A stretch of DNA of 64,000 nt. Origin: Phycisphaerae bacterium. GTDB lineage: Bacteria; Planctomycetota; Phycisphaerae; UBA1845. The notes under the pieces are model-generated. The model worked only from the letters and a program-made list of their open reading frames with translations, searched no databases and had not been told where the DNA came from. Position numbers and translations under genes: made by a program. Position 1 is the stretch's first letter. Every line of letters begins with the position of its first letter. Location of the stretch: positions 1,792,001 through 1,856,000 of the forward strand of contig CAXXGO010000001.1 in NCBI GenBank assembly GCA_963666835.2. The letters are read 5' to 3'. Positions 25,195-61,527 of the stretch are shown one piece after another.

Positions 25195-25260
25195 GAGGGG
25201 CTTCGCGTGAAACGCGGAACGATTCCCCGATGTTCCGAGCCCGACGAGCCGGCGATAGCG

Positions 25261-25494
25261 TCACGTTTCAGCTTTCCGGTCATTGTTGGCTACGTGGGGG
25301 ACCAGTTGCCGGTCCGGTTGTCGCTGCCAGGTTCGGCCGCAACGACAGCACTCCAGGACGATTTGTCCCGCCGCCGTTTCGGCGTAGAACAACGCGCAAC
25401 CGCAAATGCAAAACTCTCTATCGGGTGATTTCATTCCGGGTTGACCTCCCGTAGCACGGGGTGCGGTTTGAGCGTTTAGTTTCATGACTCTCAT
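25261..25494 (-). CDS. Small Cys-rich, zinc-ribbon-like protein (77 aa)
   Basis: Strong GGAGGTG RBS upstream of ATG; CICGC...CCRCG motifs. Confidence 0.55.
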   Translation of the reverse strand: MRVMKLNAQTAPRATGGQPGMKSPDREFCICGCALFYAETAAGQIVLECCRCGRTWQRQPDRQLVPHVANNDRKAET

Positions 25495-25525
25495 GTTGTC
25501 ACCTCCGCAGACTCTCCGCCGGCCG

Positions 25526-25724
25526 TCGCCTTTCCAAAGGCGAGCCCGGTCAGCGGCGATTGCAGCCTACACCGGGCGAGCGACAGATGAGGTCGGACCT
25601 AACATCCAAAGGGGCCCGACAGAGTAGGTCGAGCCCCCGGGGTGTGGGGCGTGCCGGATGCTGCCGGTGGGATATCTTGGGGGCCGGGAGTTACGAAAAA
25701 AATCCGGATCGCCGGGATGTTAGG
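25526..25724 (-). promoter_or_regulatory. Candidate structured 5' leader (three hairpins plus a 10-nt complementary pair)
   Basis: Hairpins at 25526-25543, 25544-25577 and 25592-25620; cctaacatcc (25598-25607) is complementary to ggatgttagg (25715-25724). Confidence 0.45.
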
Positions 25725-25810
25725 CTCGAAGACACGGTCCTTGCGGACGGTGTTCGGCGCGTCGCAGTCACGTGGAAAGGTACAGAAGTTCCCGGCTCGG
25801 GCGGCGTGTC

Positions 25811-32195: not shown

Positions 32196-32807
32196 CTTCC
32201 CGTTACCTCGCCTGTGCGATAGCGCCGTACGGCGTCGTTTCACCCTAGTTATATTCAGAGGCGTCTGAGCTTCGACCTTTGAAAGGGCGAGCGGGTTGTA
32301 GGCTAGCCAGGTGACAGTGCCTTTGCGCCGGTGCTGTTTGACTCCGCATTTGTTAAGAACCTGGCCGGATTGGCCCGCACCAAAAAAGGCAGTGACGGAT
32401 GGCCTAAAGTGCCTGCGGAGCTTTTTCGGGCGACGAGGTTTGCAGCGATTATTATGGTAACTGCGGCCAGTATTCGCTAGGATGGCCGGTGTAGAGGTTC
32501 GTGAGGTTGGAAGAGTTGCGCGGCTTGTGTTTTGGTGGCGGGAGGCTGGAGCGTCGCGGAGGAACGTCCCCGAGTCGGTTGTCTTGCGGTCGGCATTGTA
32601 CACGGGCACTTCCCTGGTTGATATACGGACGTTGCCGAGGTAGTTGGGCCTGCTGCCGGTTTGGGTGCGGGCAGCGCCTGAGCCCCGGCTGGCGTGCGGA
32701 GAACTTCGGCGATCCTCTTTTTGGGTTGGGTCAGACGGACAGGGATTCCATTGGTCAGTTTGAAGAGTGTTATGGTGATGGCGATACGAAACAGAGGCGG
32801 GATCGAG

Positions 32808-35800
32808 ATGCGCGTGATCACGAGGGTTTTGCTGCTTGTGCTGCCGGTGCTTTTGGGTGTCGAGCGCGCGGCGGGGGCGGAGCCGGTTGTCTGGCGTTCG
32901 GGAGCTGCGGAGATTGCCGATCGGATCGAGCGGACGTTACGGCGCAGGTATTAGCGCTGGCGGCGCGGTCCGATGAGCGACACGTGGTTGTGCAGTTCGA
33001 TGAGCCGGTAAGCGAGATCGATCGCGATCGAATGAGCCGGTCGGGTCTGACCCTTTTGCGTCCCTTGGGTAGCAATGCGTACTTCGCAGCAGTATCCGGA
33101 GAGACCGGCGTGTTGATGCCGGCGGATCTGGGGCTGGTGCGGGGGGTTCGGGCGGTTCAGCGCTCCTGGAAGTTGGCCCCTGCGATTCTGGCGGACCGGG
33201 TTCCCGATTGGGCGGTGGTTGCCGAAGACGCACGCGGCGATCGGATGGTGGGTGTATATGTTCTGTTTCACGCCGACGTTCCTTTGCGGTCTGAGGCGGC
33301 GGAGGCAGTTAAGCGACATGGCGGAGTCATCAGGGATACGCTGAACGTTGTGAACGGGTTGGTGGTGGAACTGCCGCTTTCCGAGGTTCGGTTGTTGGCG
33401 GATGAAGATGCGGTTCAGTGGATCGAATGGCCGTTACCGCCGATGAGCGTCGTCAACAACAGCAACCGCGCGCTGACCGGGGCTGATATCGTCAATGCAG
33501 CGCCCTACAACTTGGACGGCGACGGTATCACGGTAATGGTCTACGACGGCGGGACCGTTCGGGATACGCACGTGGATTTCGAAGGACGCGTGACGGTTCT
33601 GGACGGATCGGGCGAGCACGACCACCCCACGCATGTCGCCGGTACGGTCGGCGGGGCGGGGATCGCTAATTCGGCCCGCCGCGGGATGGCTCCGGAAGTT
33701 ACGATTCTGTCTTACGGCCTGGAGACCGATGGGACGGATATCTTCCTGTACAGCAATCCGGGTGACATTGAGGACGACTACACGGAAGCGATCTACACCT
33801 ACGGGGCGGACGTTTCGAACAACTCGATCGGTACCAACACGGAGCCGAACGGCTTCGATTGCGACATCCAGGGAGATTACGGGGTTACCGCCAATCTGAT
33901 CGACTCGATCGTTCGCGGAAGCCTCGGGGATCCTTTTCGAGTCATCTGGGCCAACGGTAACGAGCGGCAGGGGGACCGTTGCGACGTCGAGGGGTACGGC
34001 GACTACTACAGTACGGCTCCGCCCGCCGGGGCTAAGAATCACATTACGGTCGGTGCTATAAACTCCGATGACGAGAGCATGACCGATTTCAGTAGTTGGG
34101 GGCCGGTGGACGACGGGCGGCTTAAGCCCGACATCTCCGCCCCCGGCTGCGAGGTTGGTGATGATGGCGGCGTGACTTCCTGTTCCGCCTCCAGCGACAC
34201 CTCGTATACGACCATGTGCGGGACATCGATGGCCGCGCCGACCGTAACCGGTCTTACTGCTCTATTCCTGCAGGACTTCCGGGCCCAGTTCCCCGGTGTA
34301 CCTGATCCGCGGAACTCTACTCTCAAGGCGGTGTATGCTCAGACGGCGGTAGACCTGGGGGCCAACGGGCCGGACTACAAGTTCGGTTATGGATCGGTCC
34401 GCATTCAGGACGCCATTGATCTGATGCGTGACTCGGCGTTCATCGAACGGGACGTAAGCGACCATGAGATCTACACCTTCGAGATGGATGTAGAGGCCGG
34501 AACGCCGGAGCTGAAGATCACCTTGGCGTGGGATGACTACCCGGCGACACCGAATGTTGCCACGGCCTTGGTGAATGACCTTGATCTCCAGGTGTACAGT
34601 CCCTCGTCGACTCAATACTATCCGTGGACGTTGAATCCGTCATCGCCTTCCGTGCAAGCCTCGCGGACCCAGGCGGACCACGTCAACAACATCGAGCAGG
34701 TGTTGGTAGACAACCCCGAGGCGGGCCGCTGGACGGTCGAAGTATTCGGTTACTCGGTGCCGGAAGGGCCGCAACCGTTCTCGCTCGCCGGGGATGGCGT
34801 GGTCAACTCGGGGATGTGGATAACCGTGTCGGATGACCTGCCCGAAGTTGTCGCTCCGGGGGTCATCGAGAGTTTCGAAGTCCAGATTGCCACTTTGGGC
34901 GAAAGCTATGTGGCGGACAGCGGGACGTTGCACTATCGGTACGACGGCGGGACTTGGCAGACTTTGCCTCTGGTCTCGCTCGGATCAGGGCTCTTTCGGG
35001 CCGATCTTCCCGCACCGCAGTGCGGGGACACGCCTGAGTACTACGTCAGTGCGGAAGGAACCGTTAGCGGAGTCTCGACCAAACCCTCCAATGCGCCGGC
35101 CGCCACGTATTCGTTCCAAGTGGGCGAGTATGTCACGGTGCTGGAAGATGATTTCGAGACCGATATGGGCTGGACGGTCGATGCCGGGGCGAGCACCGGA
35201 AACTGGGAACGGGCCGATCCCGAGGAAGTGACTTCCGGCTGGCTCAATCCGGTGATCACTCAACCGGAGGACGATCATACGTCGACGGGAACGCTCTGCT
35301 ACGTTACGCAAGCCGCGGCCGGGTCGGGGGCTGGGAGCTACGATGTGGACGGCGGTCCGTCGCATCTTACTTCGCCGATGCTGGATCTGACCGCCGGAGA
35401 CCCATACGTCAGCTACTGGCGTTGGTACCACATAAGTACGGAGATTGATGACTCGTTGGTGGTAGCCATCTCCAACAACGACGGAGCCGATTGGGTTACG
35501 GTCGAGACCATCTCCGCCCGGCAAACCTGGACGTACGCCGAGTGGCGGGCGGCCGACTATGTAACGCCGACGACGGAAGGCCGAGTGCGATTCACGGTGA
35601 ACGACACCGATCCCGGCTCGCTTATCGAGTCGTTAATCGACGACTTCACGGTAAGGAGTTTCCAGTGCATCTCATCGGAGAGTTGCACGGACGGGATCCA
35701 GAATCAGGGTGAGGATCGCATCGACTGCGGCGGACCGTGCCCGGCGTGCGAGTGTACATCGGATGCGGCTTGCAGCGACGGGGCGTTCTGCACAGGGGTC

Positions 35801-37186
35801 GAGACCTGCGATTCCTACGGGAACTGCCTGGCCGGTAGCGATCCGTGTCCGGGGCAGTCCTGTGACGAAGTGAGTGACACCTGTGTGGCATGCGAGAACG
35901 ACGGCGATTGCGACAACGGCCTATTCTGCGACGGCGTGGAGACTTGCGATGGCTCCGGGGTTTGCCAGCCCGGCGCAACGGTTGATTGCGACGATGCCGT
36001 GGATTGCACGGACGATTCGTGCAACGAGACGACCGATACTTGCGACAACATTCCGAATGACAGCCTCTGCAATAACGGGTCATATTGCGATGGGGTCGAG
36101 ACCTGTCACGTCACTCTGGGATGTCAAGCCGGTACCGAGGTAGATTGCGACGACCTGGTTGATTGTACGGACGACTCCTGCAGTGACGCTCTTGCTTCGT
36201 GCCAGAACATCCCGAATGACGGGCTCTGTGACAACGGGGAGTTCTGCGACGGAACGGAGACGTGCGATCCGGTAGTCGGTTGTGAAGACGGAGCTATGCC
36301 GTGCGTGCCGGAACAGATGTGCCGTGAGTCGGACGACCAGTGCGTTGACTGCCTGGACAATTCGGATTGTGAGGACGGAGATCCCTGCACCGGTGAGGAA
36401 GTATGTGACCCCGACGGGACGTGCGGGCACGTCCTGGCGGCGGACTGTAACGCCAACGGCGTTGAGGATTCGTGCGATATTGACGCCGGCACCAGTGAAG
36501 ATTGTAACGTGAACGGTGTGCCGGATGAATGTGATGTGAGTGGGGGAGGTTCTTCTGATACGAACGGCAACGGCGTTCCCGACGAGTGTGAGGTCAACCC
36601 CCCGGTTGGTGCTCCGTCGCCGTATGACACGACTACGAATCGCTATATCTCCTTCGCTCCGAATAACACCACGATAAACGCGGCGCTGCGCGTTGTGATG
36701 ACCGCCAGCGATTTCTTCCCGGAATCAATCGGTACGGTTGGATGGGTGGGCGAGCCCGATGCAGAGGGGATTGCCCGGATTATCGACGAAGCCCATTACA
36801 GCAACTCTTGGCCCGCGGTGGTGCATGTAGGGGATTGCCAGATAGTCCCGGCGGCGGCGTACGAGGTGGCGGCTACTTCTGATGGAGGGTCGTTCAGCAG
36901 CGCGCTGGCGGTGAGTACCACCCCCCAGCCTGCGGCCAAGTATTGGACCGACTGCGTTGGAGAATTCACCGGGGTCTGGGGGCCGCCCAACGGGTTGGTG
37001 AACTTGAATGACATGATGGCCGCAATTCAGAAGTTCCAGCACTCTTCGACTGCGCCGCCGCTTACGTGGGTCGACGTGGACGGGGTAGTGCCGAACACCA
37101 TTTTGAATATGACCGATGTCCAGGTGATTGTGAACGGCTTCAAGGGCGAGCCTTACCCGTTCGATGACCCGGCGGATTGCCCCTAG
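32808..37186 (+). CDS. Secreted S8 (subtilisin-like) protease with Cys-rich repeats; single-base frameshift near 32917 separates the signal peptide from the body
   Basis: Catalytic D (VMVYDGG), H (HPTHVAGT), S (GTSMAAP); CTDDSC repeats. Signal MRVITRVLLLVLPVLLG...WRSG lies in another frame, and adding one C makes it colinear with the downstream paralog. Confidence 0.88.
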
Positions 37187-37262
37187 AGGGATTGCGCCAG
37201 GCGCGCCGGCGCGAGGTTGCCGGGCTTAGGCCGGTTGCCCGCTAACAAGGATGGGTTGCAAG

Positions 37263-40200
37263 ATGATCAGAACGACAAACGGAGGCCTGCTTCTGCCGGC
37301 CAATGCGATAATGTTCGTTGTGCTTGTTCTCGCGGCTCCCGTCCTGGGCAGCGGAAGGGTGATAGAGTGGCGCTCGGGCGCCGTGCAGATGGGCGAGCCG
37401 AGTACGGCCGACCTGGCGACCGCGATATCCGGCTTAGCCGCGCGCCCCGATGCCAGCCATGTTGTCGTGCAGTTTCGGCAGCCCGTCGGATCAACCGTCC
37501 GCCGGCTTTCTTCCGAAGCGGGTATGACGCTCTTAAGTTACCTGGGCAACCACGCGTTCTTCGCGTCGTTCGCCGCCGATGTTGATGAACAAGCCGTCAG
37601 CATGCTTCCGTGTCTGAAAGATGTGCGGAGCATTGACCGGTCATGGAAACTCGATAGCAGGATCGTCTCCGGCAGCATACCGGAGTGGGCCGTAGTATCC
37701 GATACGGCCGCAGGCAAGCTGGTAGCGGTATACGTGTTGTTTCATCCGGATGTGAATCTGGCTACCGATGCCGTGGCGGTTGCGCAGGAGCACGGCGGGA
37801 CTGTTCGCGACGAACTTCGGTCGATAAACGTGCTGGTGGTGGAGCTGCCGGAGTCCGAAATCGAGGCTCTGGCGGATGAGGATGCCGTCCAGTGGATTGA
37901 ATGGCCGTTGCCGCTGATGGGCGACCTCAACGACGGTAGCCGCGCGAGTACGCAGGCCGATGTCGTGCAAGCCCCGCCGTATGACCTTGACGGGACGGGG
38001 GTGACCGTGCTGGTATACGACAGCAGGTCCGCCCGAGCCACGCACGTGGATTTCGAGGGGCGGCTGACGGTCGGAGACAGCACGACCACTTCCGACCACG
38101 CCACTCATGTTGCCGGTACGATCGGGGGCGCGGGCATAGCCGATTCGACATATCGGGGAATGGCGCCGGGGGTCGACATGTTGTCTTACGGCAATGAACG
38201 CGACTTCTTCACGGGTATACTCCTTTACAGCAATCCCGGCGATCTCGAAGACGACTACGATGAGGCAATCAACACCTATGGAGCCGACATCTCCAATAAC
38301 TCAATCGGCACCAATGTTGAGAACAACGGGTTTGACTGCGCTATTCAAGGGGATTACGGCATCACGGCCGCGTTGCTCGACTCGATCGTTGCCGGGAGTC
38401 TGGGCGATCCGTTTCGGATAGTCTGGTCCGCGGGCAACGAAAGGAGCGGAGATCGTTGTGATGTTGAAGGATACGGCGACTACTACAGCACCGCTCCTCC
38501 GGCCGGGGCCAAGAACCCCATTAGTGTCGGTGCGATTAACTCCAACGATGAGTCCATGACGGATTTCAGTAGTTGGGGACCGCTGGATGACGGGCGAACC
38601 AAGCCGGACGTTTGCGCGCCAGGTTGCCAAACCGACGGGGATCTCGGAGTTACTTCGTGTTCGTCGAGCAGTGACACGGCTTATCGATCCGCGTGCGGGA
38701 CCTCGATGGCCGCCCCCGCCACGTGCGGCCTGTGTGCGTTGCTGATGCAGGACTTCAGGAGTTTCTTTCCGACCCAGCCGGACCCGCGCAATTCCACCTT
38801 GAAGGCCCTGCTGGTTCATAATGCCGACGACTTCGGCGCCGTCGGACCCGACTACCAGTATGGGTATGGGGTCGTCCGCATTCAAGAGACTATCGACTAT
38901 ATGCGGATAGGCAACTTCCTGGAGGATGAGTTGGTCCAGGGAGAGACATTCATCACCTGGGTATCCGTCGAGGCCGGAGATGAACTGAAGGTAACCGTGG
39001 CGTGGGATGATGCTGCCGGGGCGCCCAATGTGGTGCCGGCGTTGGTGAACGACCTTGACCTTCGGGTGTACGATTCCTCGGGCGTGCAATATTACCCGTG
39101 GACTCTGGATCCGACCGTGCCTGCTGATCCGGCCGTTCGAATCCAAGCCGACCGGGTCAACAATATCGAGCAGGTTGTCGTTGATGCCCCGGCGGCGGGT
39201 CTTTGGCGGGTTGAGGTAGTCGGTTTTGATGTTCCTCAGGGCCCGCAGTCGTTTACGTTGGCGGCGTCCCCGCAGTTGGTCTCCTGTTCATCCCAGGGGG
39301 CGGTGCTCTTCGGAGCCCAGCGGTACGGCTGCACGGCTACGGCGCACGTTCGGGTGGTCGATTGTGACCTGAATGCTAATCCGAGCGTTGCCGAGACGGT
39401 TACCGTATCGGTGGCGTCGCCGACGGAGCCGGGTGGGGAGACTGTTCTTCTGACCGAGACCGGATCGGATACGTCGGATTTCCGTGGAACAGTGCAGCTC
39501 GACGTGGTCGATGCCTCCGGGGTGCTTCAGGTTGCAGAAGGAGACACTGTAAACGCAGTGTACATTGACGCCGACGATGGACTGGGTGGGGTGGGCGTTC
39601 CCGTGGAGGCCACTATGACCGTGGATTGCCTGGGTCCGCAGATCTCCAATGTTCACGTGCCTGAAATCGATACTTTCACGGCCACGGTGAGTTTCGAGAC
39701 CGACGAGCGCGCCGTGGGTACCGTATGGTACGGCTCCACATGCGAGACCCTGAACAAGTCGGTCGTCGAGCCCTACCCGCGGACGTCTCACGATGTCGTC
39801 TTGACCGGGCTAAGCCACGGGACTCCCTATTACTACGCAATTGAGGCCGAGGATGAGCAGGGCAACGAATCGGGCGACGATAACTCGGGCAGTTGTTACA
39901 GCTTCTGTACGCGCGAGATTGTTTATACTTATTCGCTGAATTCGAATCCGGGCTGGACCAGTGAGGGGAACTGGGGCTACGGACAACCGCTTGGGGGCGG
40001 GAGTCACAACGGGGATCCCACTGCAGGTTACACGGGCTGGTTTGTATATGGGTACAACCTGTCGGGCGACTATGAAAATGACCTGCCCGCAACCTATCTC
40101 ACCACGGCGGCCATCGATTGTAGCGGGACAACGAACACGGCGCTGCGGTTCCGGCGGTGGTTGGGAATCGAAAGCGCGGACTACGGGGATGGGGCGACGA

Positions 40201-42416
40201 TCGAAGTTTCGGATGACGGGCTTGTCTGGGATGTTGTGTGGGATCACACGGGTTCTGCGATAAATGAATCATCCTGGTCGCTTCAGACTTTGGATATTTC
40301 CGCGGTCGCCGACGGTGAATCGCAGGTCTACATTCGCTGGGGGATGGGACCGACCGGTTGGTTTGTTACATACCCGGGCTGGAACATCGACGACGTTCAG
40401 ATCATCGCCGACGGGTCCGTTTTGGAGCCGACATGTAGCGACAGCGTGCAGAACCAGGGTGAAGATCGTATCGACTGCGGAGGACCATGCGCGCCGTGCG
40501 AGTGTACATCTGATGCAGCTTGCAGCGACGGGGCGTTCTGTACCGGGAACGAGACCTGTGATGCGTTCGGACATTGTCTGGCGGGCGAGGACCCTTGCCC
40601 GGGGCTGATGTGCGACGAAGTGAGTGACGTTTGTGTGGAATGTCTGTCCGACGAAGATTGTGCTGACGAGTTCTTCTGCAACGGGGAGGAGACGTGCGAT
40701 GCGGAAGGGGATTGCCAGCCCGGTACCGCGGTAAACTGCAACGACGGCGTGTCATGCACGGTCGATTCATGTAACGAGGGGACGGACTCGTGTGATAACG
40801 TCGCGGACGACGCGTTGTGCGACAACGGTCTTTATTGCGACGGAACGGAAACATGCGACCAGGTGCAGGATTGTCAGGACGGTACCCCGATCGACTGCAA
40901 TGACGGCGTCGATTGTACGCTCGACCATTGTATCGAGGAGACGGATAGTTGCGAGAATGTTCCTAATGACGGGGCGTGCGATAACGGCCTATACTGCGAT
41001 GGAAACGAAACGTGTGATCCGATCCTTGATTGTCTCAGTGGGACGGCGGTTGACTGTAGCGACGAACACGAGTGCACGATCGATTCCTGCAACGAACTGA
41101 CTGATTCCTGTGATAATGTGCCGGATGACGAGCTGTGCAGTAACGGGGTTTATTGTGACGGGGCCGAGACGTGCAATCCTCTGCTGGGATGCCAGGCCGG
41201 CGCGTGGGTCAACTGTTACGACGGAGTGAGTTGCACGGTAGACTCCTGCAATGAAACGACCGATTCCTGCGACAACGTGCCCGACGATGAGGCGTGCAGC
41301 AACGGCATATTCTGTGATGGGGTGGAGATCTGCGACCCGATACTCGGCTGTCTGAGCGGGCCGGAGGTCGATTGCGCCGATGAGGTGAATTGCACCGTCG
41401 ACTTCTGCGATGAGGCGACCGAGACGTGTAAGAACCTGCCTGACGACGATTACTGTGCTGATCCGTTCTACTGCAATGGGGTGGAAACGTGCGACGTCGT
41501 AGAGGGGTGTCTGCCCGGGAGTAATCCGTGCCCGCCGGAGGAGTTCTGTCGGGAGTCTGACCACATGTGTGTCGAGTGCCTGATGGACTCCGACTGCGAT
41601 GACGAGGATCCCTGCACGGGGAACGAAGCGTGCGATCCTGACGGAATTTGCCTGCGGGTCGTAGTCCACGACTGCAATGGAAACAGCCTCGAAGATTTTT
41701 GCGATATTGACGCCGGGACCAGCGAAGACTGCAACGTCAACGAGGTTCCTGACGAATGCGATATCGGTCAGGGTACGTCAGCCGACAGTAACGGGGACGG
41801 CGTGCCGGATGAGTGTGAGTTGCAGCCGCCCAGCGCGGCGCCGGTTCCGCACGACATTACGAAGAACCGCTATATCTCGCTTGTGCCGAATAATGGGACC
41901 GTGGCGGTGGCTATCGCGGTCGAAGCGACGGCCTGCGAATTCGCCCCGGAGTCGATTGGTTTTCTGGGCTGGATCGGCGAGCCGAATGGCGATGATGTTG
42001 CCCGAGTCGCTGATGAGCCGGTCTACCGGGTTTGGGGCGATCAAGTCCATCACGTGAGCGATTGCCAGATCGTGCCGGCCGCAACGTACAGTCTACGAAC
42101 CACGCCGGATGGGGTTACGTTCAGTGATCCACTGGTCGTGCAAACGACTCCCGAACCTTTGCCGAAACACTGGGCGGACTGCGTCGGCGAGCTGGTCAAC
42201 GGCAACTGGACACCCCCGAACGGGTTCGTCAATACGGCGGATATTATGGCGATCATCCAGGCCTTCGAGTTCGTGCCCACGGCCCCCGATCCAAAGAGGG
42301 TTGATCTCGATCCCGAGGTTACCAACGCCGTAATCAACATGACCGACGTCTCCATGGTCGTTCAGGGCTTCAAGGGTATGAGCTACCCCTTCAACGCTCC
42401 GTTGGACTGCCCGTAG
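37263..42416 (+). CDS. Secreted S8 protease paralog with FN3-like domain and expanded Cys-rich (CTxDxC) repeats
   Basis: VLVYDS, HATHVAGT, GTSMAAP; LTGLSHGTPYYY (FN3); about six C.DGV.CTVD.CNE-type repeats; same C-terminal domain as the paralog. Confidence 0.9.
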   Translation: MIRTTNGGLLLPANAIMFVVLVLAAPVLGSGRVIEWRSGAVQMGEPSTADLATAISGLAARPDASHVVVQFRQPVGSTVRRLSSEAGMTLLSYLGNHAFFASFAADVDEQAVSMLPCLKDVRSIDRSWKLDSRIVSGSIPEWAVVSDTAAGKLVAVYVLFHPDVNLATDAVAVAQEHGGTVRDELRSINVLVVELPESEIEALADEDAVQWIEWPLPLMGDLNDGSRASTQADVVQAPPYDLDGTGVTVLVYDSRSARATHVDFEGRLTVGDSTTTSDHATHVAGTIGGAGIADSTYRGMAPGVDMLSYGNERDFFTGILLYSNPGDLEDDYDEAINTYGADISNNSIGTNVENNGFDCAIQGDYGITAALLDSIVAGSLGDPFRIVWSAGNERSGDRCDVEGYGDYYSTAPPAGAKNPISVGAINSNDESMTDFSSWGPLDDGRTKPDVCAPGCQTDGDLGVTSCSSSSDTAYRSACGTSMAAPATCGLCALLMQDFRSFFPTQPDPRNSTLKALLVHNADDFGAVGPDYQYGYGVVRIQETIDYMRIGNFLEDELVQGETFITWVSVEAGDELKVTVAWDDAAGAPNVVPALVNDLDLRVYDSSGVQYYPWTLDPTVPADPAVRIQADRVNNIEQVVVDAPAAGLWRVEVVGFDVPQGPQSFTLAASPQLVSCSSQGAVLFGAQRYGCTATAHVRVVDCDLNANPSVAETVTVSVASPTEPGGETVLLTETGSDTSDFRGTVQLDVVDASGVLQVAEGDTVNAVYIDADDGLGGVGVPVEATMTVDCLGPQISNVHVPEIDTFTATVSFETDERAVGTVWYGSTCETLNKSVVEPYPRTSHDVVLTGLSHGTPYYYAIEAEDEQGNESGDDNSGSCYSFCTREIVYTYSLNSNPGWTSEGNWGYGQPLGGGSHNGDPTAGYTGWFVYGYNLSGDYENDLPATYLTTAAIDCSGTTNTALRFRRWLGIESADYGDGATIEVSDDGLVWDVVWDHTGSAINESSWSLQTLDISAVADGESQVYIRWGMGPTGWFVTYPGWNIDDVQIIADGSVLEPTCSDSVQNQGEDRIDCGGPCAPCECTSDAACSDGAFCTGNETCDAFGHCLAGEDPCPGLMCDEVSDVCVECLSDEDCADEFFCNGEETCDAEGDCQPGTAVNCNDGVSCTVDSCNEGTDSCDNVADDALCDNGLYCDGTETCDQVQDCQDGTPIDCNDGVDCTLDHCIEETDSCENVPNDGACDNGLYCDGNETCDPILDCLSGTAVDCSDEHECTIDSCNELTDSCDNVPDDELCSNGVYCDGAETCNPLLGCQAGAWVNCYDGVSCTVDSCNETTDSCDNVPDDEACSNGIFCDGVEICDPILGCLSGPEVDCADEVNCTVDFCDEATETCKNLPDDDYCADPFYCNGVETCDVVEGCLPGSNPCPPEEFCRESDHMCVECLMDSDCDDEDPCTGNEACDPDGICLRVVVHDCNGNSLEDFCDIDAGTSEDCNVNEVPDECDIGQGTSADSNGDGVPDECELQPPSAAPVPHDITKNRYISLVPNNGTVAVAIAVEATACEFAPESIGFLGWIGEPNGDDVARVADEPVYRVWGDQVHHVSDCQIVPAATYSLRTTPDGVTFSDPLVVQTTPEPLPKHWADCVGELVNGNWTPPNGFVNTADIMAIIQAFEFVPTAPDPKRVDLDPEVTNAVINMTDVSMVVQGFKGMSYPFNAPLDCP

Positions 42417-43972: not shown

Positions 43973-44320
43973 TCCTGTGGGGGCACTCCTCTACGCCGGA
44001 TGGTAACTCGTCTAGTGGCAGGCTTCCACAAAGCGGTACCGTTGTTCGGGCGGGGCAACCTGGACGGCTGGCCCGTCGCTTTGGGGGGGCGTCTATTCAG
44101 TCGATTCCGCGAGGTTTAGACGGCTGGCTCGGAGGCAAAACAAAGTTCCTTATTCTCGACAGGCACCTGGCACGCTCGATTTCGATTAAACCGACGGGCC
44201 CCCCAATGCGATGGGGCATCCATCGCGGTGGTTCTGCGGGTGTGGGGTTGTTCTATTGGTGTCGGGCCTCGTTACCGGCGCGGGGCGAGGGGCCCCGCGC
44301 CGGGGAACGACGGCCGAAGT

Positions 44321-47300
44321 CTAGGGGTTGTCCGGGTCCAGGCCGGTGAAGTCGGTCATGGTCTCGTAGACGGCTTGACCGTTCTCGTCGCACGGGTCGA
44401 CCAGGATCTTACGAGCGAAGACCGGGGAATCGTGGGTCAGAGCCCGGTGGCAGTCGTTGCAACTCCGCTCCGGAAGCGATCCGTAGCCCCACGACTCTTC
44501 CTTGGCCAGCACGTTGTGGTCCATGCCCCAGATGTACGGGTACCATTCCTCCATGGCGATACCCTTGCCGACGTAATTGAGGGACAGCACATTGTGCGAG
44601 TCGGCCGGGTCCTGATAGAAGAACCGCTTACCGCGGACCAGCACCGGGTTGGCCGCGACCTGCACGCCGTTGTCGTCGTTACCCTTGAGGGCCTGGATGA
44701 ACGTCAGAATCTCCTCGGGCGTGTTGATCTCGTTGCGCCCGTCACCGTCCGCGTCGGTTACCGCCAGCCACGGATCGGTGGCGGCGTTGGCAATGGCCTG
44801 AGCCACTCGCCAGGTATACAGCGGAGTGACGGTGTCGTCGGTGTAGTCGCCCGGGGTACCGTTAGTGTCCCAATCACCGAAGTAGTGCATGATCCAGACA
44901 CTGGCCGGGAACCAACGCTCGACCCCGTCGCTGTCCTTCTTGAGCATAAACGGCGGATACCAGCGACTGTCGCCGTCCACCGCCGCCGGATTCAGCGGAT
45001 CTTCCGAGTAATACTGGTGGGTCCAGCCGACGCTGCCGGGAACGGTACTGTCTCTGAAGAGCAGACCGGCGGTCAAAGCGTAAGGCACGTGGCACGCCTG
45101 GCAGGCGAGGACCTCGTACGGCGGCACCGCGTGAATGTTCAAATCACCGGGGACTTCCGGAGCGTCTTCGTGACGCACCGGGCTGTCCGAAAGGTGGCAC
45201 TCGCGGCATGACCGGAAATCGTTCGCATAGTCCAACTCGTCACGGAACTGGAGATTGAAGGCGTTACCCTTGCCCACGTTGTGGTCCAGTTCGCCCTCGT
45301 GACACTCCGTACAGACTCGGCTCTCGTTGGCGGGAATGTCGTTGGCGGGATCCTCGTCGTTGAGGTTGTTGAACTTGGCATAGTGTACGTCCCGATCGTC
45401 GAACCATACCATCCCCGCGACCACCGCCATCGGGTGGCAACTGGTGCAAGCCTGGTCCTTCGGCGGGTAGGCCAGCGACGACAACGCCAGCGAGAGCACG
45501 TCGTTCTCCCCGACGATCAAACTGCCGTCCGCTACGCCGACCGAGTAATCGATCGTCAGCGTGCTCGCCGCCGCGATCCCGCCCGATTCTTCCGGAACCG
45601 GATTGACGAACGCTTCATCCGCAGCACTGAGCCCGTCGGCGGAAGCTATGGCCGGGGAGGCCAACGCGTATTCGGAGTACCAGCCCTGCCCGGCGGTAGG
45701 TGCCGCGGCGAAGCCCGGAACCGGTTCGCCCGCGCCGTTGACCAGGTTGTTGGCGGCCGCGAGGGTATTACTGCGTTTGGCCTGGATCGTATCGGAGCCG
45801 CCGTTGTCGCGGTCCTCACGGTGGCACAAGAGGCAGTCGGGCTCGGAAAGACCGGTCTCGTCCCAGGGGGCGAGACTGGCTTGCCCCGTAGAGCCGTCCA
45901 CTACGCAATAGTCCCCGTCGAGGGCGACGTCGCCGGCGCTTTTGCCCAAAAGCTCGTAACCGAACTCGCCGGTGATTTCGTTGTAGAGGAGCTGATCGTC
46001 ACGATCGAACTCGCCCGGACCGCCGCCGGCGTGACAGCCGCTGCAATCGCGGATCCACGCGAAGGTCGACTGGTCAATGTCGGACGGACGGGTGTTGTCC
46101 TTGGCGGCCAGCATGAACTGGAACGTCTGACCCCACTGACCGTACCGGCCGGAACTCTTAGTCCAATACCGCCCGTCGCCGTAGTAGTCGTCGGCCATGT
46201 CGACGTTGCCGTCTACATCTGTGCGACCTTGCTGGAACCACTCGCCGTTGGCTACCTCGTCGGCCTCGTGGTCATGGCAGCCGCCGCAGGTCTGCCGCGG
46301 GCTGTAAGGCACCGTCGAGTCGACCGTGATCGGGTTCCCCAAAGAGTCCTTGAGGACCATTTGCGGGTGAGGATTGAGGTCGGTGAGTTCCTTGACGGTT
46401 TTGTAGATCGTCTGACCGTGCTCATCCAACGGATCGACGAGGATGAGGCGATCGAAGACCGGGGAGAGTTCGCCGTCGGCCGGGTGGCAGTCCAGACATC
46501 CGGCGAACGGATCGGCAGCGTGGCCCCAAGCTTCTTCCTGAGGAAGTACGTTGTGGTCCATGCCCCAGATATAGGGGTAGGACGTCATTGGGATGCCGGT
46601 CCCTTCATGCTCGAACGAGAGCACCGTGCCGGGATTGGCCGGGTCTTCGTAGAAGACCCGCGGTCCGCGAACCAGAACCGGGTTCGCCGCGAACGGCACG
46701 CCGTTGGAGTCGTTGCCGCGGAGAGCGGTAAGATAAGCCAGAATCTCCGCCGGAGTATTGATCTCTCCGCGTCCGTCGCCGTCGTCGTCCTGGAGTACTC
46801 CGGCCGGGACGTTCGCCGTCGCCTGGGCGGTTCGCCAGGTGTAGATCGGTGCGATTACGTCGTCGCTCAGATCGCCCGGAGTACCGTTATCGTCCCAGTC
46901 ACCGAAGTAGAACATGATCCATACGCTGGCCGGGAACCACCGCTTCACGCCGTCGCTGTCCTCTTTGAGCTGCAGGGGCGGATACCAGCGGCTGTCGCTG
47001 TCTTCGAGCGTCGGATCCAGCGGGTTCTCGGAGTAATACTGGTGGGTCCAGCCGACGCTGCCGGGAACGGTGATGTCGCGGAAGAGCAGACCGGCGGTCA
47101 GGGCGTAAGGTATGTGGCAGGCCTGGCACGAGAGAATATCGAACGGAGGCACGTTGTGGATCGTCTGCGTGCCGGGCACGTGTGGGGCGTCCGGATGACG
47201 GACCGGACTGTCGGTCAGGTGGCAATCGCGACAGGAGCGGAAGTTCTCCCAGTCCAGCTCGTTACGATACTGGAGCTGGAAGGAGTTGCCCTTGGCCGCA

Positions 47301-48772
47301 TTGTGGTCCAAGCCGGTCGGATGGCACTCGGAGCAGACGGTGCTCCGCTCCGCCGGGATGTCGTTGTCAGGGTCCTCGTCGTTGAGGTTGTTGAACTTGC
47401 GGTAGTGGATGTCACGATCGTCGAACCAGACTTCGCCGGCGACCACGGCCAAGGGGTGACAACTAACGCAGGCCCGATCGGCGGTTTTGAGGGATACGGA
47501 GTCCGGCGAGAGGAAGACCTCGTCGTTGTTGCCGACGGTCAGGCTGCCGTCGGTTACGCCGGTGTTGTAGTTGATGTCCAGAGTGGACGCGGCGGCTATG
47601 CCCCCGCGGCTCTGATCGTGGGCTTCGAGAAACGCTACGTCCGCGGTGGTCATTCCTTCGGTCGCGGCGATTGCGGAGGCGGGCTTGCTGAAACTGGAAT
47701 ACCAGCCCTGCCCGGCGGTCGAGGCGGCGGCAAACGCGGGGACCGGAGCTCCGCCGCCGTCGGTGAGGCTGTTGCCGGCCGCGAGGGTGTTGCTGCGGTT
47801 GGCCTGGATCGTGTCGGATCCGCCGTTGGTGCGGTCCGCCCGGTGGCACAAAAGGCAGTCGGGCTCGGAGAGTCCCGTTTCGTCCCAGGGTGCGGGGCTG
47901 ACCGTGCCGCTGGTTCTGTCGAGTACGCAGTAGTCGCCGTCGAGGGTTACATCGCCGGCGCTGTAGCCGAGCAGCTCATATCCGAACTGCCCGGAGGCTT
48001 CGTCGTAGAAGGGCTGGTTGTCGCGATCGAACTCGCCCGGCCCGCCTCCGGAGTGGCATCCGCTGCAGTCGCGGACCCAGGCGTAGGCGGACTGGTCGAT
48101 GTCGGAAGCGCGGTGGTTGTCCTTGGCGGCGAGCATGAACTGGAAGGACTGGCCCCACTTGCCGTACCGGCCGGCGCTCTTGATCCAGTATCTTCCGTCT
48201 CCGTAGTAGTCGTCGGCCATATCGACGTTGCCGGCCAAGTCGGTTCTGCCTTGCTGGAACCACTCGCCGTTGGCTACTTCGTCGGCGTCATGGTCGTGGC
48301 AGTCCCCGCAAGTCTGGCGGGGGCTGTACGGCACGGAGGAGTTGATCGTAATGGCGCTGCCGAGGCTGTCCTTGAGGGGAATCGGCGTATGCCCCCGGGC
48401 GTTTTGAAACCCGGCGAAGTCGGCAAAGTCGACGTCCCCGTCGCGGTCCGCGTCAAACAACGCTAAACAAACCGGCGGTATCTCGTCCCGAACCCCCGAT
48501 ACCGCAAAACACTCCTCAAAGAAACGAAAGTCCGTCAAATCGACGTAACCATTAACATCGAAATCCCACTGGTCGCTTTCGGCTGCTACTGCGATCGATG
48601 GAGAGGCTTCGATTGTGCTCGCCATTGTCTGGCGGACCTTCTGGATAGCCGGTCCCGGAGGCGCGCCGCGACCTCGTTGGGGTGAAGCGTCGATCGCTTC
48701 AACGGTCAGCTTGATCGTCAGGATGCCTAGGATGACGCAGAGCGTCCACGGTACGAGTGTCTTGCCGTTCAT
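44321..48772 (-). CDS. Multiheme cytochrome c, 16 CxxCH: signal/TM anchor + dockerin-like domain + two tandem octaheme modules
   Basis: Likely start MNGKTLVPW at 48772 (AAAGGGA RBS). Eight CxxCH in each of two ~675-aa paralogous modules starting LKDSLG..YSPRQTCGxCH..FQQG. Confidence 0.92.
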   Translation of the reverse strand: MNGKTLVPWTLCVILGILTIKLTVEAIDASPQRGRGAPPGPAIQKVRQTMASTIEASPSIAVAAESDQWDFDVNGYVDLTDFRFFEECFAVSGVRDEIPPVCLALFDADRDGDVDFADFAGFQNARGHTPIPLKDSLGSAITINSSVPYSPRQTCGDCHDHDADEVANGEWFQQGRTDLAGNVDMADDYYGDGRYWIKSAGRYGKWGQSFQFMLAAKDNHRASDIDQSAYAWVRDCSGCHSGGGPGEFDRDNQPFYDEASGQFGYELLGYSAGDVTLDGDYCVLDRTSGTVSPAPWDETGLSEPDCLLCHRADRTNGGSDTIQANRSNTLAAGNSLTDGGGAPVPAFAAASTAGQGWYSSFSKPASAIAATEGMTTADVAFLEAHDQSRGGIAAASTLDINYNTGVTDGSLTVGNNDEVFLSPDSVSLKTADRACVSCHPLAVVAGEVWFDDRDIHYRKFNNLNDEDPDNDIPAERSTVCSECHPTGLDHNAAKGNSFQLQYRNELDWENFRSCRDCHLTDSPVRHPDAPHVPGTQTIHNVPPFDILSCQACHIPYALTAGLLFRDITVPGSVGWTHQYYSENPLDPTLEDSDSRWYPPLQLKEDSDGVKRWFPASVWIMFYFGDWDDNGTPGDLSDDVIAPIYTWRTAQATANVPAGVLQDDDGDGRGEINTPAEILAYLTALRGNDSNGVPFAANPVLVRGPRVFYEDPANPGTVLSFEHEGTGIPMTSYPYIWGMDHNVLPQEEAWGHAADPFAGCLDCHPADGELSPVFDRLILVDPLDEHGQTIYKTVKELTDLNPHPQMVLKDSLGNPITVDSTVPYSPRQTCGGCHDHEADEVANGEWFQQGRTDVDGNVDMADDYYGDGRYWTKSSGRYGQWGQTFQFMLAAKDNTRPSDIDQSTFAWIRDCSGCHAGGGPGEFDRDDQLLYNEITGEFGYELLGKSAGDVALDGDYCVVDGSTGQASLAPWDETGLSEPDCLLCHREDRDNGGSDTIQAKRSNTLAAANNLVNGAGEPVPGFAAAPTAGQGWYSEYALASPAIASADGLSAADEAFVNPVPEESGGIAAASTLTIDYSVGVADGSLIVGENDVLSLALSSLAYPPKDQACTSCHPMAVVAGMVWFDDRDVHYAKFNNLNDEDPANDIPANESRVCTECHEGELDHNVGKGNAFNLQFRDELDYANDFRSCRECHLSDSPVRHEDAPEVPGDLNIHAVPPYEVLACQACHVPYALTAGLLFRDSTVPGSVGWTHQYYSEDPLNPAAVDGDSRWYPPFMLKKDSDGVERWFPASVWIMHYFGDWDTNGTPGDYTDDTVTPLYTWRVAQAIANAATDPWLAVTDADGDGRNEINTPEEILTFIQALKGNDDNGVQVAANPVLVRGKRFFYQDPADSHNVLSLNYVGKGIAMEEWYPYIWGMDHNVLAKEESWGYGSLPERSCNDCHRALTHDSPVFARKILVDPCDENGQAVYETMTDFTGLDPDNP

Positions 48773-48939: not shown

Positions 48940-49274
48940 GGGAGCTGTTGGATGTAATCGTGGGAAAAACCCTGCGTGACCGTCGGTTGGAGAGAGGTAC
49001 AGCTACGTCACCCCACGGCCTCCCGATCTCGTCATCCGAAACCGTCTCAGAACAAGTTCCTCTCTTGAATGGGCTCAAACCGTTGTCGGTAGCGGTGTGC
49101 GTTTGCGGAACAGGTTGTGTTACAGAATGCAGTAGTCCACCATGCAGGGCGCCCGCGGCGGTTGCTTTGCCGACGTCGCCGGTTGCCGGTAAGCTCGACA
49201 CCGATCCGCTGCAAGAAGATCCGCAGGCGGTTTCAGGGAGGAGTGTAATGACAGAGAACAGTGGTTCCTTGGCC

Positions 49275-50661
49275 ATGACTGCCCCGGGTGAGGTTTATCG
49301 GACTAGGCGTGCGCGTCTTGCGTCGGGGCTGAGCCGGCCGATTGTGGTATTCGCGGGGCAGGCGCGTCCGCGGCAGTATGCAACGAATCTCCATCCGTTC
49401 CGAGCGGGCAGCAACTATCTCTACCTCGGCGGGCCCCCGCTGGCGGGAGCGGCATGGTTGATCGAACCGGGCAGCGATGGTGAGCGTGGGGCGACGCTAC
49501 TCCGTCCGCCTCCCGATTTCGAGGACGCGGTCTGGGTCGGTATGGCACCGAAAGACGATGAGATTGCATCGTCGGCCGGCATCGCCCCGGAGGCCATCTT
49601 CGCGCCGGGCGAGTTGGGGGAGATGCTCAAAGGGCGGAGGGCTGCGTATGTGGCTCCACCGTGCCTGCTGACCATGGAGTTCATCGGTCGGCTCGGTTTG
49701 CAGGCTGCCAAACCAGAGGAACAGCAGCTTCTCATCGATTCGCGTTTGTTCAAGGATCAATACGAGATTGCCGCACTCCGACGTGCGGCGAAGGCGGCCG
49801 TGAGTGCTCACCGGGCAGCGATGGCGGGGGACGGTTCCGGGAAGTTCTGAAGCCGGGGTCGCGGGGCGGCTTCTTGCGGGTTTTGCGACAGCGCGGTGCA
49901 TTCCGTCGTTTACCCCGATCGTCACAGTGAGGGGGGAGGTTCTCCACTGCGAGAGCTATCCCAATGAACTCAAGGCCGGTCAGTTGTTGCTGGCTGACGC
50001 CGGGGCGGAGGAACCCGGCGGTTACGCTTCCGACATCACGCGCACGTACCCCGTCTCGGGCGAGTTCACGGCTATACAACGCCAGATATACGAGACCGTG
50101 CTGCGGGCTGAGCGCGTGGGCATTGCTGCGTGCGTACCGGGCCGGCGATATCGTGATGTTCACGATCTGGCGGCGGGGGCGATCTGTGAGGGTCTGGTCG
50201 AGGCTGAGATCTTGAGGGGGGACCCCGTGGAACTGACCGCCCGCGGCGCTCACACGCTCTTCTTCGTACATGGCGTTGGGCACCTCCTCGGGCTCGATGT
50301 GCATGATATGGAGGATTTCGGGGATTTGGCCGGATACGCCCCCGGTCGTGAGAGGCGTTCGGACTTCGGCAGCAAGTTCCTGCGGCTTGACCGTGATTTA
50401 CAGGCGGGCATGGCCGTGACGATCGAGCCTGGGGTCTATTTCATCCCTCAACTTTGGGAGCGAACTGAGCTAACGGCACCGTTTGCAGATGTTGTTAACC
50501 GGGCGGCGGTTGATACGTTGCTCGAAGCTCGCTTTGGCGGTATCCGGATTGAGGACGATGTTCTGGTTCGCGGGGTCGATGCGGATGGACCGGAGGTGTT
50601 GACGGATGAGCTTCCCACAGATGCGGATGAGGTTACGGCGATTGTCGGCAGCGAAGCCTGA
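49275..50661 (+). CDS. pepP: Xaa-Pro aminopeptidase (M24B), split by a one-base insertion in a G5 run (49826-49830)
   Basis: N-terminal HPFRAGSNYLYL in one frame; DAGAE..GYASDITRT, HGVGHLLGLDVHD, TIEPGVY, GGIRIEDD in the next. Removing one G gives MAGTVPG. Confidence 0.88.
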
Positions 50662-57104: not shown

Positions 57105-57235
57105 CCCGCAGTATTCGTTGAGTCCGGCGCGATGGGTCGTGAATGAGACCAGCAGGCGATCGGATCCGCGTCATCGCAGTTATTGCCGGTCTGCGCGGCT
57201 ATCAAGCAACGAGAATAGGAAGGCGGAGAGAGGGT

Positions 57236-59419
57236 ATGCGAATACGGTTTCTTCTGGCCGGAATAGCCCTACTGTGGGGTTCTCAGGTACATGCCACGGT
57301 CTATATCAACGAGGTCTTCATCAACCCGCCGGGTAGCCTCGATGTGACTCGGGAGTTCATTGAACTTGCCGGGACGCCGGGACGAAAGCTCGACGGGTAC
57401 GCCGTAGCGTTTCTGGCGGGTGCGCAAGAGAAATACTACCCCCTGGACAGCATTCCACCTTACCCCGTCCCATCACCCGAGATCGATGAGTTCTTCAGTT
57501 TGGACGGACTCGCGCTGGGGCGAAACGGACTGCTTGTCCTGACGATCAGCAATAAAGGCAACTACCCCGAGGTTCTTGCGGACTCGGCGTTCCGCGGAAA
57601 CTGGGCCAGCATCTGGAACGGCGGGGCGGATGAACCGGGTAAGCTGCAGAACGACGGCTCCATAACGGTGCTGTTGGTGCGCAATCGTCCGGGACGGACG
57701 GAGCAGAACCCCGCGCATTCCCTGGAGCTCAAATGGGGCAAAAGCATCCTGATGGACGCTCAGCTCGAGCGTCCGGTTCTGGATCCGCAAGATGATGTAC
57801 TGAAGGACCAGTGGGGGGATGGTGATCTCGATGTCGGCGAGGCGAACGGTCTTGGGGGCTATACCCTGGATATGGTGGGAGCGCTGACCGCAGGCGACTT
57901 CACCGACGATCTCGAGGTCGTGGACGAGGTGAGCTACGAGCACGGGCGCGGGTGGGAGTATGACACCGATGACCGTCGCGTAGATGAGGGAAGCCCGCAC
58001 GGAGGTCTGCCCGAGCGACGGGTGCATGCACTTGATGATCCTCAGGGATTCAATCCGGATGCGCTCGCCCGGGTCGACTATCGAACGACCGGTCCGGGAT
58101 GGGCTCCCACGCCGGGTGCGATCGGATCCATGTTCAACGGTAACAACTGGCAGGACACCGCAACCGAGCAGTGGGTTCGCGGGGAGGCAACACTGGTCAT
58201 CGGTAGCCAGGGCCCGGAGTTTTTCTTTGACCACAGCCCTAACAGCAATGAGGACTCGGTCCAACCGTATACCACGAACGTTCCCAGTTGGCTTGATGAC
58301 GGCTATGACGTGGACTATGACTTTTCGGAGCCGGCTACCTATCGCATCACGCCCGGCCGGATGAACCCGCTGTCGATTCCCTATGTGCCCGGCGATGTCG
58401 ATCGGGATGGTGATTGCGACGGCAACGACCTTGCCAAGATGCTGAGCGTCTTCGGGGACGATGATTGGATCTTCAGTAACGCCTTCGACGAGTCCGGCGA
58501 GGGTAACGACGGCGATCCTGGGCAACAGGTACGTCCCTGGGATGTAGACTGCACCGGTTCCGAGGGAATTGAGTGCAGCGACTTGCAGTGGGTTCTCAAC
58601 TTCCAGAATTGCCCGGATGGTCGGATCGAAGGCGTAATGTACGACGACGAGACGCCGGCGGATTCCGGTGTCAGGCTCAACTCTAACGCCTCCGTCGAGT
58701 GCGAGGTGACCGTCACGATCAATGTACTTAGCGGGCGGCCGTTGGATGGACTGGCCGTAGGCGATGTGCTTGAAATCGACGTCGCGGTCGAGGTGGTCGC
58801 AGGATTCGACCAAACGGCCGGCAGTGAGAACGGCGTCATGCAATTCGCGCACGATCTTCAGGCGAGCGTTGCCAATATCGTGCATGTCGAGAGTGTAGAG
58901 CCTCTTGGAGCATTCACGATCGGCCGACCCGCGCTGTTGACGCTGCAAGGGCCGGACGGCAGCTTGGGGATTTCGAACATCCATGGTTATACGACGTCGT
59001 TCACCGAAGGGCTGGCAACGGCGGCGGTTGCGTACCGGGTGCGCATGCAGGCCAACGAGGTCGGGGCGGTCGAGTTGTCCATCGCACCTGCAGCGGCGCA
59101 GAAGTTCGCCGAAAGCACGCCGTATGGCTTGAAGGTCGGGCATACCGACCAACACGGGGATCCGTTCAATGCCCTCTATCCAGACCCGGTTGCGATCGCA
59201 GTCACCGACGTGCCGTTCGTGGTGGGAGATTGTGACGGCAGCGGTGATGTCACGGTTGACGATGCCGCTTGCTTCATTGATTGCCTGGACGAACCGGACG
59301 TGCCTGCCTCGGTGGAATGTGCGCGGGCGGATGTCGATGGTGATGCGGACGTCGATTTAAGCGATTGGGCTGAGTTCGAACTTCTTCTCGATAATAGAAC
59401 ATCTCGGGACCCATCGTAA
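57236..59419 (+). CDS. Secreted protein: lamin-tail-like N-terminus, dockerin-like, cohesin-like and C-terminal dockerin-like domains
   Basis: VYINEVFINPPG..EFIEL; GDVDRDGDCDGND; L.VGD.LEIDV.V...GV.QF..DL...RMQANEVGAVELSI; GDCDGSGDVTVDD / DVDGDADVDLSD. Confidence 0.75.
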   Translation: MRIRFLLAGIALLWGSQVHATVYINEVFINPPGSLDVTREFIELAGTPGRKLDGYAVAFLAGAQEKYYPLDSIPPYPVPSPEIDEFFSLDGLALGRNGLLVLTISNKGNYPEVLADSAFRGNWASIWNGGADEPGKLQNDGSITVLLVRNRPGRTEQNPAHSLELKWGKSILMDAQLERPVLDPQDDVLKDQWGDGDLDVGEANGLGGYTLDMVGALTAGDFTDDLEVVDEVSYEHGRGWEYDTDDRRVDEGSPHGGLPERRVHALDDPQGFNPDALARVDYRTTGPGWAPTPGAIGSMFNGNNWQDTATEQWVRGEATLVIGSQGPEFFFDHSPNSNEDSVQPYTTNVPSWLDDGYDVDYDFSEPATYRITPGRMNPLSIPYVPGDVDRDGDCDGNDLAKMLSVFGDDDWIFSNAFDESGEGNDGDPGQQVRPWDVDCTGSEGIECSDLQWVLNFQNCPDGRIEGVMYDDETPADSGVRLNSNASVECEVTVTINVLSGRPLDGLAVGDVLEIDVAVEVVAGFDQTAGSENGVMQFAHDLQASVANIVHVESVEPLGAFTIGRPALLTLQGPDGSLGISNIHGYTTSFTEGLATAAVAYRVRMQANEVGAVELSIAPAAAQKFAESTPYGLKVGHTDQHGDPFNALYPDPVAIAVTDVPFVVGDCDGSGDVTVDDAACFIDCLDEPDVPASVECARADVDGDADVDLSDWAEFELLLDNRTSRDPS

Positions 59420-59481
59420 CGAATAGAAGTCAGTGGCGAGGACTCATAGTTTTGCGGCGAAAGGCGCAAGGGGGAGATTCA

Positions 59482-61479: not shown

Positions 61480-61527
61480 GTGTGTACGTGGTCGGAAGGT
61501 GATGTTGGGTATACCAGGAGAAAGGGA

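Follow-up and report, generated by a model that had tools for sequence, protein, structure and literature searches.

An N-terminal dockerin-like tag and two tandem octaheme modules of predicted tetrathionate reductase fold in one protein of a Phycisphaerae bacterium

Here, we describe a gene from a 64,000-nucleotide stretch of DNA of a Phycisphaerae bacterium (hereafter the window; contig CAXXGO010000001.1 of assembly GCA_963666835.2, positions 1,792,001 to 1,856,000), whose predicted product of 1483 amino acids joins a leader, a dockerin-like domain and two octaheme cytochrome modules in a single chain (Table 1). Sequence profiles and a structural model suggest that the modules belong to an uncharacterised family of Phycisphaerae that has the fold of octaheme tetrathionate reductase (OTR). 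The open reading frame (ORF) is not a chance frame, since 178 relatives of near-equal length were found, the best 120 of which mostly consist of the tag and one module at 44-62% identity; the named near relatives are Phycisphaerae or other Planctomycetota. The translation holds 16 CxxCH motifs, eight in residues 128-801 and eight in residues 802-1483, and one DxDGDG loop in each module, as an earlier note on this DNA had read them. The modules are less alike than the near-identity claimed there, sharing 68% of their protein positions (466/682) and 72% of their DNA.

Table 1. Coordinates of the 16-heme gene and its features in the window, with residue numbers of the 1483-aa protein
Feature	Position	Strand	Basis
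Whole gene: leader, dockerin-like domain and two OTR-fold octaheme modules	44321..48772	-	1483-aa ORF
Leader, residues 1-67: hydrophobic signal and ~40-aa linker, putatively exported and cleaved	48572..48772	-	Sequence
Dockerin-like domain, residues 68-127: two Ca-loop/helix repeats, conserved Cys pair C88/C102	48392..48571	-	Sequence, fold match
Module 1, residues 128-801: 8 CxxCH, OTR fold	46370..48391	-	Sequence, model, profile alignment
Module 2, residues 802-1483: 8 CxxCH, joined without linker	44324..46369	-	Sequence, tree
EF-hand-like loop (DxDGDGxxEIN), module 1, residue 662, predicted Ca site	46754..46789	-	Alignment
EF-hand-like loop (DxDGDGxxEIN), module 2, residue 1340	44720..44755	-	Sequence
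Heme-2 site, module 1: K205, G207, K217, C236xxC239H240	48053..48160	-	Alignments
Heme-2 site, module 2: Q879, G881, K891, C910xxC913H914	46031..46138	-	Alignments
W171 replacing a conserved His, module 1	48260..48262	-	Alignment
W845, same His-to-Trp replacement, module 2	46238..46240	-	Alignment
12-bp G+C hairpin 18 bp past the stop, no U tract, within the shared tract	44275..44303	-	Sequence reading
Tract shared with a second copy (4346 bp, 99.6%; G000:C3:529702-534047), first dockerin codon to ~90 bp past the stop	44230..48575		

Export and heme attachment of the protein are likely, to judge by its sequence. Its single hydrophobic stretch covers residues ~2-30, and the long leader type recurs in the relatives P0007, P0008 and P0273-P0275. 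Beyond the Cys residues of the heme motifs, the leader, the tag and one conservation-free site in each module there are only two further ones. In the EF-hand-like loop of module 1, D662, D666, G667, E670 and N672 are nearly invariant among 120 relatives. The gene apparently stands alone, divergent from an upstream peptidase gene and 349 bp from a downstream radical-SAM gene. A Pfam scan of the 29 other window ORFs returned peptidases, the radical-SAM protein, lamin-tail proteins and housekeeping genes and no match to a cytochrome b, quinol oxidase or porin, in agreement with what the earlier note had said of the adjacent genes. A terminator scan found no site after the stop of the gene, and a promoter scan found 0 sites.

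An AlphaFold model of residues 66-801, made with 113 sequences, has a predicted local distance difference test score (pLDDT) of 91.3 and a predicted TM-score of 0.90. Among 48,161 chains, its sole match at Z>=8 is 1SP3, the OTR of Shewanella oneidensis (SO4144; chain residues 1-432, Z 10.8, 330 aligned residues, root-mean-square deviation (rmsd) 4.3, 21% identity; the model is heme-free), which is also the first Foldseek row (E 1.7e-3, prob 0.98). When a profile of the wider family is aligned to four OTR-like sequences encoded by this genome and its relatives, the eight heme motifs pair one-to-one and in order (prob 99.4, 416 columns); a single-sequence comparison of the module with OTR reaches prob 73. 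Fold, heme order and spacing, heme 2 and the N- and C-terminal His positions thus align with OTR, whereas each window module has ~240 extra residues, a Ca-like loop, one His replaced by Trp and no Cys at the OTR active-site position, and the protein as a whole adds the dockerin tag and the tandem doubling. We place the module within the OTR fold but outside the OTR family because it falls below the family cut-offs. In Pfam the protein has no Cytochrome_cB match (PF11783, cut-off 22.1 bits) at E<=0.01, in contrast to the resemblance to that type remarked on in the earlier note, and the sole Cytochrome_cB match in the genome is a separate canonical OTR (TIGR04315, 464.7 bits). It also has no match at E<=1 to the MmcA family TIGR04314 or, in NCBIfam, to the HmcA and MtrC families, and a Pfam match to MtrC II/IV spans only ~90 residues of paired heme motifs. 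Sequence searches of the PDB listed calmodulins, a double dockerin and generic multiheme matches but no relative of the module; 1SP3 was not among them. The protein mass per heme is 9.2-9.3 kDa in each module, and a review assigns a catalytic function to multiheme cytochromes of known structure that exceed 7 kDa per heme (PMC7096707). This value and the retained heme 2 therefore favour an enzyme over a wire, and the wire-type electron-transfer cytochrome proposed earlier gives way to an enzyme-type module with its Z of 10.8 to 1SP3.

The heme-2 ligand of OTR is Lys56, which precedes Cys74 by 18 residues (PMC3769277); seven hemes are bis-His, and a conserved active-site Cys lies between the Lys and heme 2 (bioRxiv 2023.04.20.537704). 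In the family described here, heme 2 is kept in 118/118 aligned relatives, with a conserved GGGxxExDR tail. K217 and K891 lie 19 residues ahead of the heme-2 motif, and K217 is kept in 117/118 near relatives and in 20 of 26 distant family members. In hhalign and in a fragment fold alignment of low confidence (residue 201 on 1SP3 residue 51; first nine residues at pLDDT <50), the OTR Lys instead falls on K205/Q879, which leaves K205 and K217 as rival candidates for the heme-2 ligand. Six extra His are conserved in module 1 (128, 456, 490, 526, 539 and 740), so that at the level of alignment each module has six extra conserved His and a Trp at the place of the seventh, in contrast to the seven bis-His hemes of OTR. 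Cys is missing from the stretches between residues 158 and 236 and between residues 832 and 910, and the OTR active-site Cys is thus without counterpart in the protein. Two residues past K205, the 60 sites read in 65 loci comprise seven TGA codons with the frame open beyond, 16 Cys, 36 other residues and one unparsed site, and 16/149 representative proteins, one of them dockerin-bearing, stop exactly at this TGA/Cys site. In-frame TGA codons and proteins that stop there would fit selenocysteine (Sec); near-family residue counts come from full-length matches and under-sample TGA-bearing members. One canonical OTR gene carries an in-frame TGA where the conserved active-site Cys would be encoded (L042; G017:C33:42878-44140, minus strand), and PMC13188914 already lists a Sec-bearing OTR annotated in GenBank. 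Like the latter, the MccSep/ExtKL selenoenzyme (PMC13510729) has Sec beside a multiheme active site, but these proteins represent a different fold family or a different site, and the window protein has no Sec.

Distant relatives, found as ESM Atlas clusters and commonest in Thermodesulfobacteriota, share 25-35% identity and the same eight motifs with the window modules. They differ from the window protein in that none of 45 carries the dockerin tag, most keep the seventh His and many have Cys or TGA. Among 48 scanned proteins, 14 have a cytochrome b561 domain and others have PKD, InlB-B repeat or thioredoxin domains. The b561 domains and the 23 TGA or Cys sites give these relatives the appearance of terminal enzymes, which supports an enzymatic function of the family.

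The tag was modelled with Ca loops at residues 70 and 107 and helices at 79-91 and 116-125. Dockerin entries fill all of rows 2-15 of the fold list (Z 2.8+ to 6.4), among them 2vn5_B (Z 6.4, rmsd 2.7) and 2ozn_B (Z 6.2, rmsd 2.4). The top seven dockerin entries have an rmsd of 1.7-3.0, against ~10 for calmodulins on the tag, and the N-terminal motif thus resembles a dockerin and not a calmodulin-type EF-hand pair; the earlier note had named an isolated EF-hand without cohesin binding as an outcome that would speak against its reading. With type I/II dockerins the tag shares two Ca-loop/helix repeats, the dockerin-like fold and a genome that also encodes cohesins and lamin-tail proteins; it differs from them in its N-terminal position, its conserved Cys pair, a score under the Pfam cut-off and a multiheme redox module in place of a hydrolase or peptidase. 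It is kept in 112/120 near relatives and 16/17 long relatives by a profile built from the family itself. The genome encodes one cohesin above the Pfam cut-off and cohesin-like domains in at least 12 ORFs at E<1e-3, among them small cohesin+dockerin proteins; these counts are lower bounds, as the profile search was run on the 3378 ORFs, out of 35,868, that passed filters for length and Arg content. All five related genomes that carry the gene have a cohesin above the Pfam cut-off and 11-26 dockerin matches each, consistent with the cohesin partners envisaged in the earlier note. The partner domain suggested there, at 58694-59210, is unproven, being recognised neither by Pfam nor by three family cohesin profiles (hhalign prob <=0.55%, 58673-59218). 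A complex prediction of the tag with the cohesin at C1:929418-929870 of the same genome scored 0.01 (mark 0.32) and speaks neither for nor against binding.

We favour the explanation, to which we give a probability of about one half, that the gene encodes an exported OTR-fold redox enzyme that is docked on a scaffold, has an open heme 2, is fed in trans and has shifted in chemistry from OTR. Briefly, the tag would dock the protein onto a cohesin-bearing scaffold, presumably by Ca-dependent binding. Electrons would be supplied by another cytochrome in trans, as the gene has no membrane partner, and would pass along the His-ligated hemes to a putatively open heme-2 site, the likely place where a small compound of nitrogen or sulfur is reduced. 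With the module doubled, each docking position would hold two sites and 16 hemes. As other residues stand in for the Cys/Sec and for one His ligand, the protein probably catalyses a reaction other than that of Shewanella OTR. Among multiheme enzymes OTR itself is regarded as structurally exceptional (PMC9250108), and its native role is cryptic (bioRxiv 2023.04.20.537704).

Several observations weigh against this explanation. At the position aligned with the OTR Lys, module 1 has K205 whereas module 2 has Q879, and just 41/120 relatives have Lys there. The seventh His, which aligns with an OTR His and is present in 26/26 distant relatives, is Trp in both window modules and His in just 24/117 near relatives, and Gly207 and Gly881 stand where relatives have Cys or TGA, despite selA in the genome. 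The window protein scores 46 bits with the OTR family TIGR04315 (cut-off 375), the genome already has a canonical OTR, and the Pfam scan of the window revealed no quinol-oxidising partner nearby. As to the tag, the dockerin Z scores lie in the middling range of the fold tool. The Dockerin_1 search (PF00404) suggested in the earlier note did return the domain, yet at 17.1 bits (E 0.0064) and thus under the cut-off of 22.9. The tag is a general and not a redox-specific device, because it occurs on 81 ORFs of the genome, and in P0068 and P0078 it is swapped for a carboxypeptidase-regulatory-like domain.

The generality and the sub-threshold score of the tag would also be expected if the protein were a free periplasmic or inner-membrane-anchored OTR-type cytochrome and the tag a general Ca-binding or sorting device that acts independently of cohesins, which we consider improbable. 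The tag profile detects 82 domains in these ORFs, 60 of them C-terminal (Pfam dockerin matches number 31). By contrast, cohesin-like ORFs number about a dozen, and the filtered ORF set showed no scaffoldin with many cohesins. In addition, PKD, InlB-B or C-terminal sorting domains take the place of the tag in distant relatives, and the leader of the window protein may stay uncleaved as an anchor. Tag geometry, however, is dockerin-like rather than calmodulin-like, and the kin encode cohesins, proteins that join a cohesin to a dockerin, and a cohesin that ends in an IPTL-type tail. Cellulosomes, too, have many dockerins per cohesin. As a search of the 92%-complete genome for an MtrB/PioB porin gave no PF11854 match, an outer-surface location of the window protein is without support. 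A peptidase-carrying dockerin-cohesin 'planctosome' was proposed in other Phycisphaerae (PMC6461901); binding is unproven in the Phycisphaerae systems considered. Three consecutive secreted proteins in the window (57143-63999, plus strand), one dockerin-bearing and two with triple lamin-tail domains and IPTL-type tails, are reminiscent of the proposed planctosome parts; 51 proteins of the filtered ORF set have IPTL-type tails. Large secreted proteins with tandem cohesin-like domains and Cys-rich repeats, including a 471-aa protein with two cohesins and a dockerin, are clustered at G000:C1:895000-930000, and one of the members of a smaller cluster at C1:1990000-2005000 is a weak cohesin that carries an IPTL-type tail.

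Fusions of dockerin and multiheme modules, which the earlier note had proposed to survey in Phycisphaerae, are present in the kin, with full-length members in five of 40 related genomes, all within the 24 of the same family. Besides the second copy in the same genome, there are 17 long relatives, 14 with 16 heme motifs, two with 15 and a truncated one with 14; none of the 18 long matches has more than one tag or more than 16 hemes. Modules 1 and 2 of the window gene are sisters in the tree (support 100/98), whereas other doubles pair modules of different subclades in differing orders (the larger tree is FastTree only, and P0275 was left out of the tree reading). Doubling therefore arose several times independently, in the window gene through internal duplication or homogenisation, and the tandem single-module genes at L022, L025 and L060 are likely intermediates.

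Repeated fusion of modules from different subclades, with the opening His of module 2 right behind the end of module 1, is the pattern expected if heme number or reach were selected. It agrees with the leading alternative, which we nonetheless regard as unlikely, that the protein is a catalytically spent OTR derivative serving as a scaffold-docked conduit or electron store, in which doubling lengthens the heme chain, a reading that corresponds to the earlier note's apart from the surface location. The replacement of the Cys/Sec, of the OTR-aligned Lys in module 2 and of one His would fit a spent site, and MmcA of Methanosarcina (TIGR04314) is a precedent of an OTR relative with an altered catalytic site that turned into a conduit, with seven hemes and heme 2 lost (bioRxiv 2023.04.20.537704). 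However, MmcA lacks precisely the heme-2 motif and is encoded in an rnf operon, whereas in the window protein heme 2 and its surroundings are among the best-conserved parts and there is no rnf context. The 9.2 kDa per heme, the ceiling of 16 hemes among the long matches and the missing MtrB/PioB porin likewise argue against a conduit, and in comparison with MtrCAB-type conduits or the 16-heme cytochrome HmcA the window protein has no adjacent MtrB-type porin and no NCBIfam match to the HmcA or MtrC families.

The second copy of the gene (G000:C3:529615-533956) has a short leader unrelated to that of the window gene. Ten of the 11 changed codons between the copies are synonymous, and both 5' joins are present in public contigs of 3/4 runs, which come from two studies, the source possibly being one of them. 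The contig depth of about 1.1-1.6 times the flanks was not read as a copy number. An assembly artefact as origin of the second copy is unlikely in view of this synonymous bias and of the two joins. The C3-type 3' flank was seen in none of the four runs, and only X3 breaks, at 44256-44285. Population-level variation behind the second copy is possible. Because both leader types occur in relatives, the simplest reading of the sequences would be gene conversion between two paralogs. A third paralog has a single module (C1:127886-130222). A frameshifted remnant of the C-terminal end of a module (G000:C1:1213220-1213430) lies directly behind a Crp/Fnr-like gene beside an hcp-like gene, labels that come from a sequence reading and not from a family scan. 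A canonical OTR gene is convergent with one for an 8-heme lipoprotein-like cytochrome (L036; G000:C1:165014-168689), and 17 ORFs of the genome have at least three CxxCH motifs.

The C3 copy is convergent with an operon of hzsA-like, CRTAC1-like, c554-hzsBC-like, propeller and two binding-protein genes, all far under the hydrazine synthase cut-offs. Such an arrangement was described for the non-anammox clades I/II, whose hzs-like complex has no known reaction (PMC12758564). The cluster lies beside the cytochrome gene in 3/20 loci (own C3, L027 and L059), many of the loci being short. An unnamed dockerin protein of ~900 aa adjoins the cytochrome in L024, L025, L027 and L028 and heads the own C3 operon in two copies. 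It occurs in 26/41 genomes in 1-8 copies, and an ESM Atlas search with it gave only leads under 0.9. In L059 this ~900-aa protein is fused to a diheme domain, the tag and a module in a single 2128-aa frame. Long hzsBC-like frames are found in 5/6 carrier genomes and 5/35 others. In the operon itself (L103; G000:C3:534377-550258), c554-hzsBC-like is a 10-heme fusion. The L059 fusion (2798-9181, plus strand) comprises a ~340-aa unnamed domain, Cys-rich repeats, a diheme cytochrome c, a dockerin and an octaheme module, and lies directly upstream of a single-chain hzsA/c554/hzsBC-like protein.

It is tempting to see in the protein a dedicated redox partner of the non-anammox hzs-like complex that gives it electrons or an intermediate of the nitric oxide/hydroxylamine type, as OTR reduces nitrite and hydroxylamine, and as the adjacency of the ~900-aa dockerin protein in four loci, its place in the C3 operon and its fusion in L059 recur despite its low copy number per genome. 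Yet the cluster is not seen in 17 of the 20 loci, many of them short, the window copy and the single-module paralog are located elsewhere, and the gene converges on the operon rather than belonging to it at own C3 and L027. The carrier genomes are kin, so that co-occurrence is not independent, and with weaker matches included the contrast shrinks to 5/6 carriers versus 10/35 others. Together with the lack of a known reaction for the hzs-like complex, this makes a dedicated partnership the least probable of the readings considered here. A broader picture, which we regard as a long shot, would be a Phycisphaerae 'redox cellulosome', in which 8- and 16-heme OTR-fold proteins, the ~900-aa partner and the hzs-like complex might share an envelope scaffold for nitrogen or sulfur redox chemistry, with Sec versions of the enzyme in other lineages.

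Searches of openly accessible full texts found no paper that describes a dockerin-multiheme fusion or the octaheme family, in line with the earlier note's view that the architecture is undescribed. No multiheme domain appears among 19 of the 20 'cytochrom' places in the dockerin/cohesin table of PMC9012536. The family forms a large unstudied branch of the OTR fold and offers three natural experiments, namely Cys, Sec or neither at heme 2, His or another residue at one ligand position, and one or two modules in a chain. A respiratory-type protein on a dockerin would extend cohesin-dockerin assembly from hydrolysis to redox chemistry, and the protein would be the first candidate redox partner for hzs-like operons of non-anammox bacteria.

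Other features of the window include a gene for an Xaa-Pro aminopeptidase (M24; 49252-50661, plus strand) that is split over two frames near 49800-49850, either genuinely or through an assembly error, and a DDE transposase gene with a WYL/PafC-type regulator (22448-26833). Two tandem subtilases of 1.5-1.7 kaa with PPC domains and Cys-rich repeats are encoded at 32501-42416 (plus strand), and a BLAST search with this subtilase region revealed two near-identical Cys-rich coding repeats with ~6.6-kb spacing at G000:C5:80600-94500.

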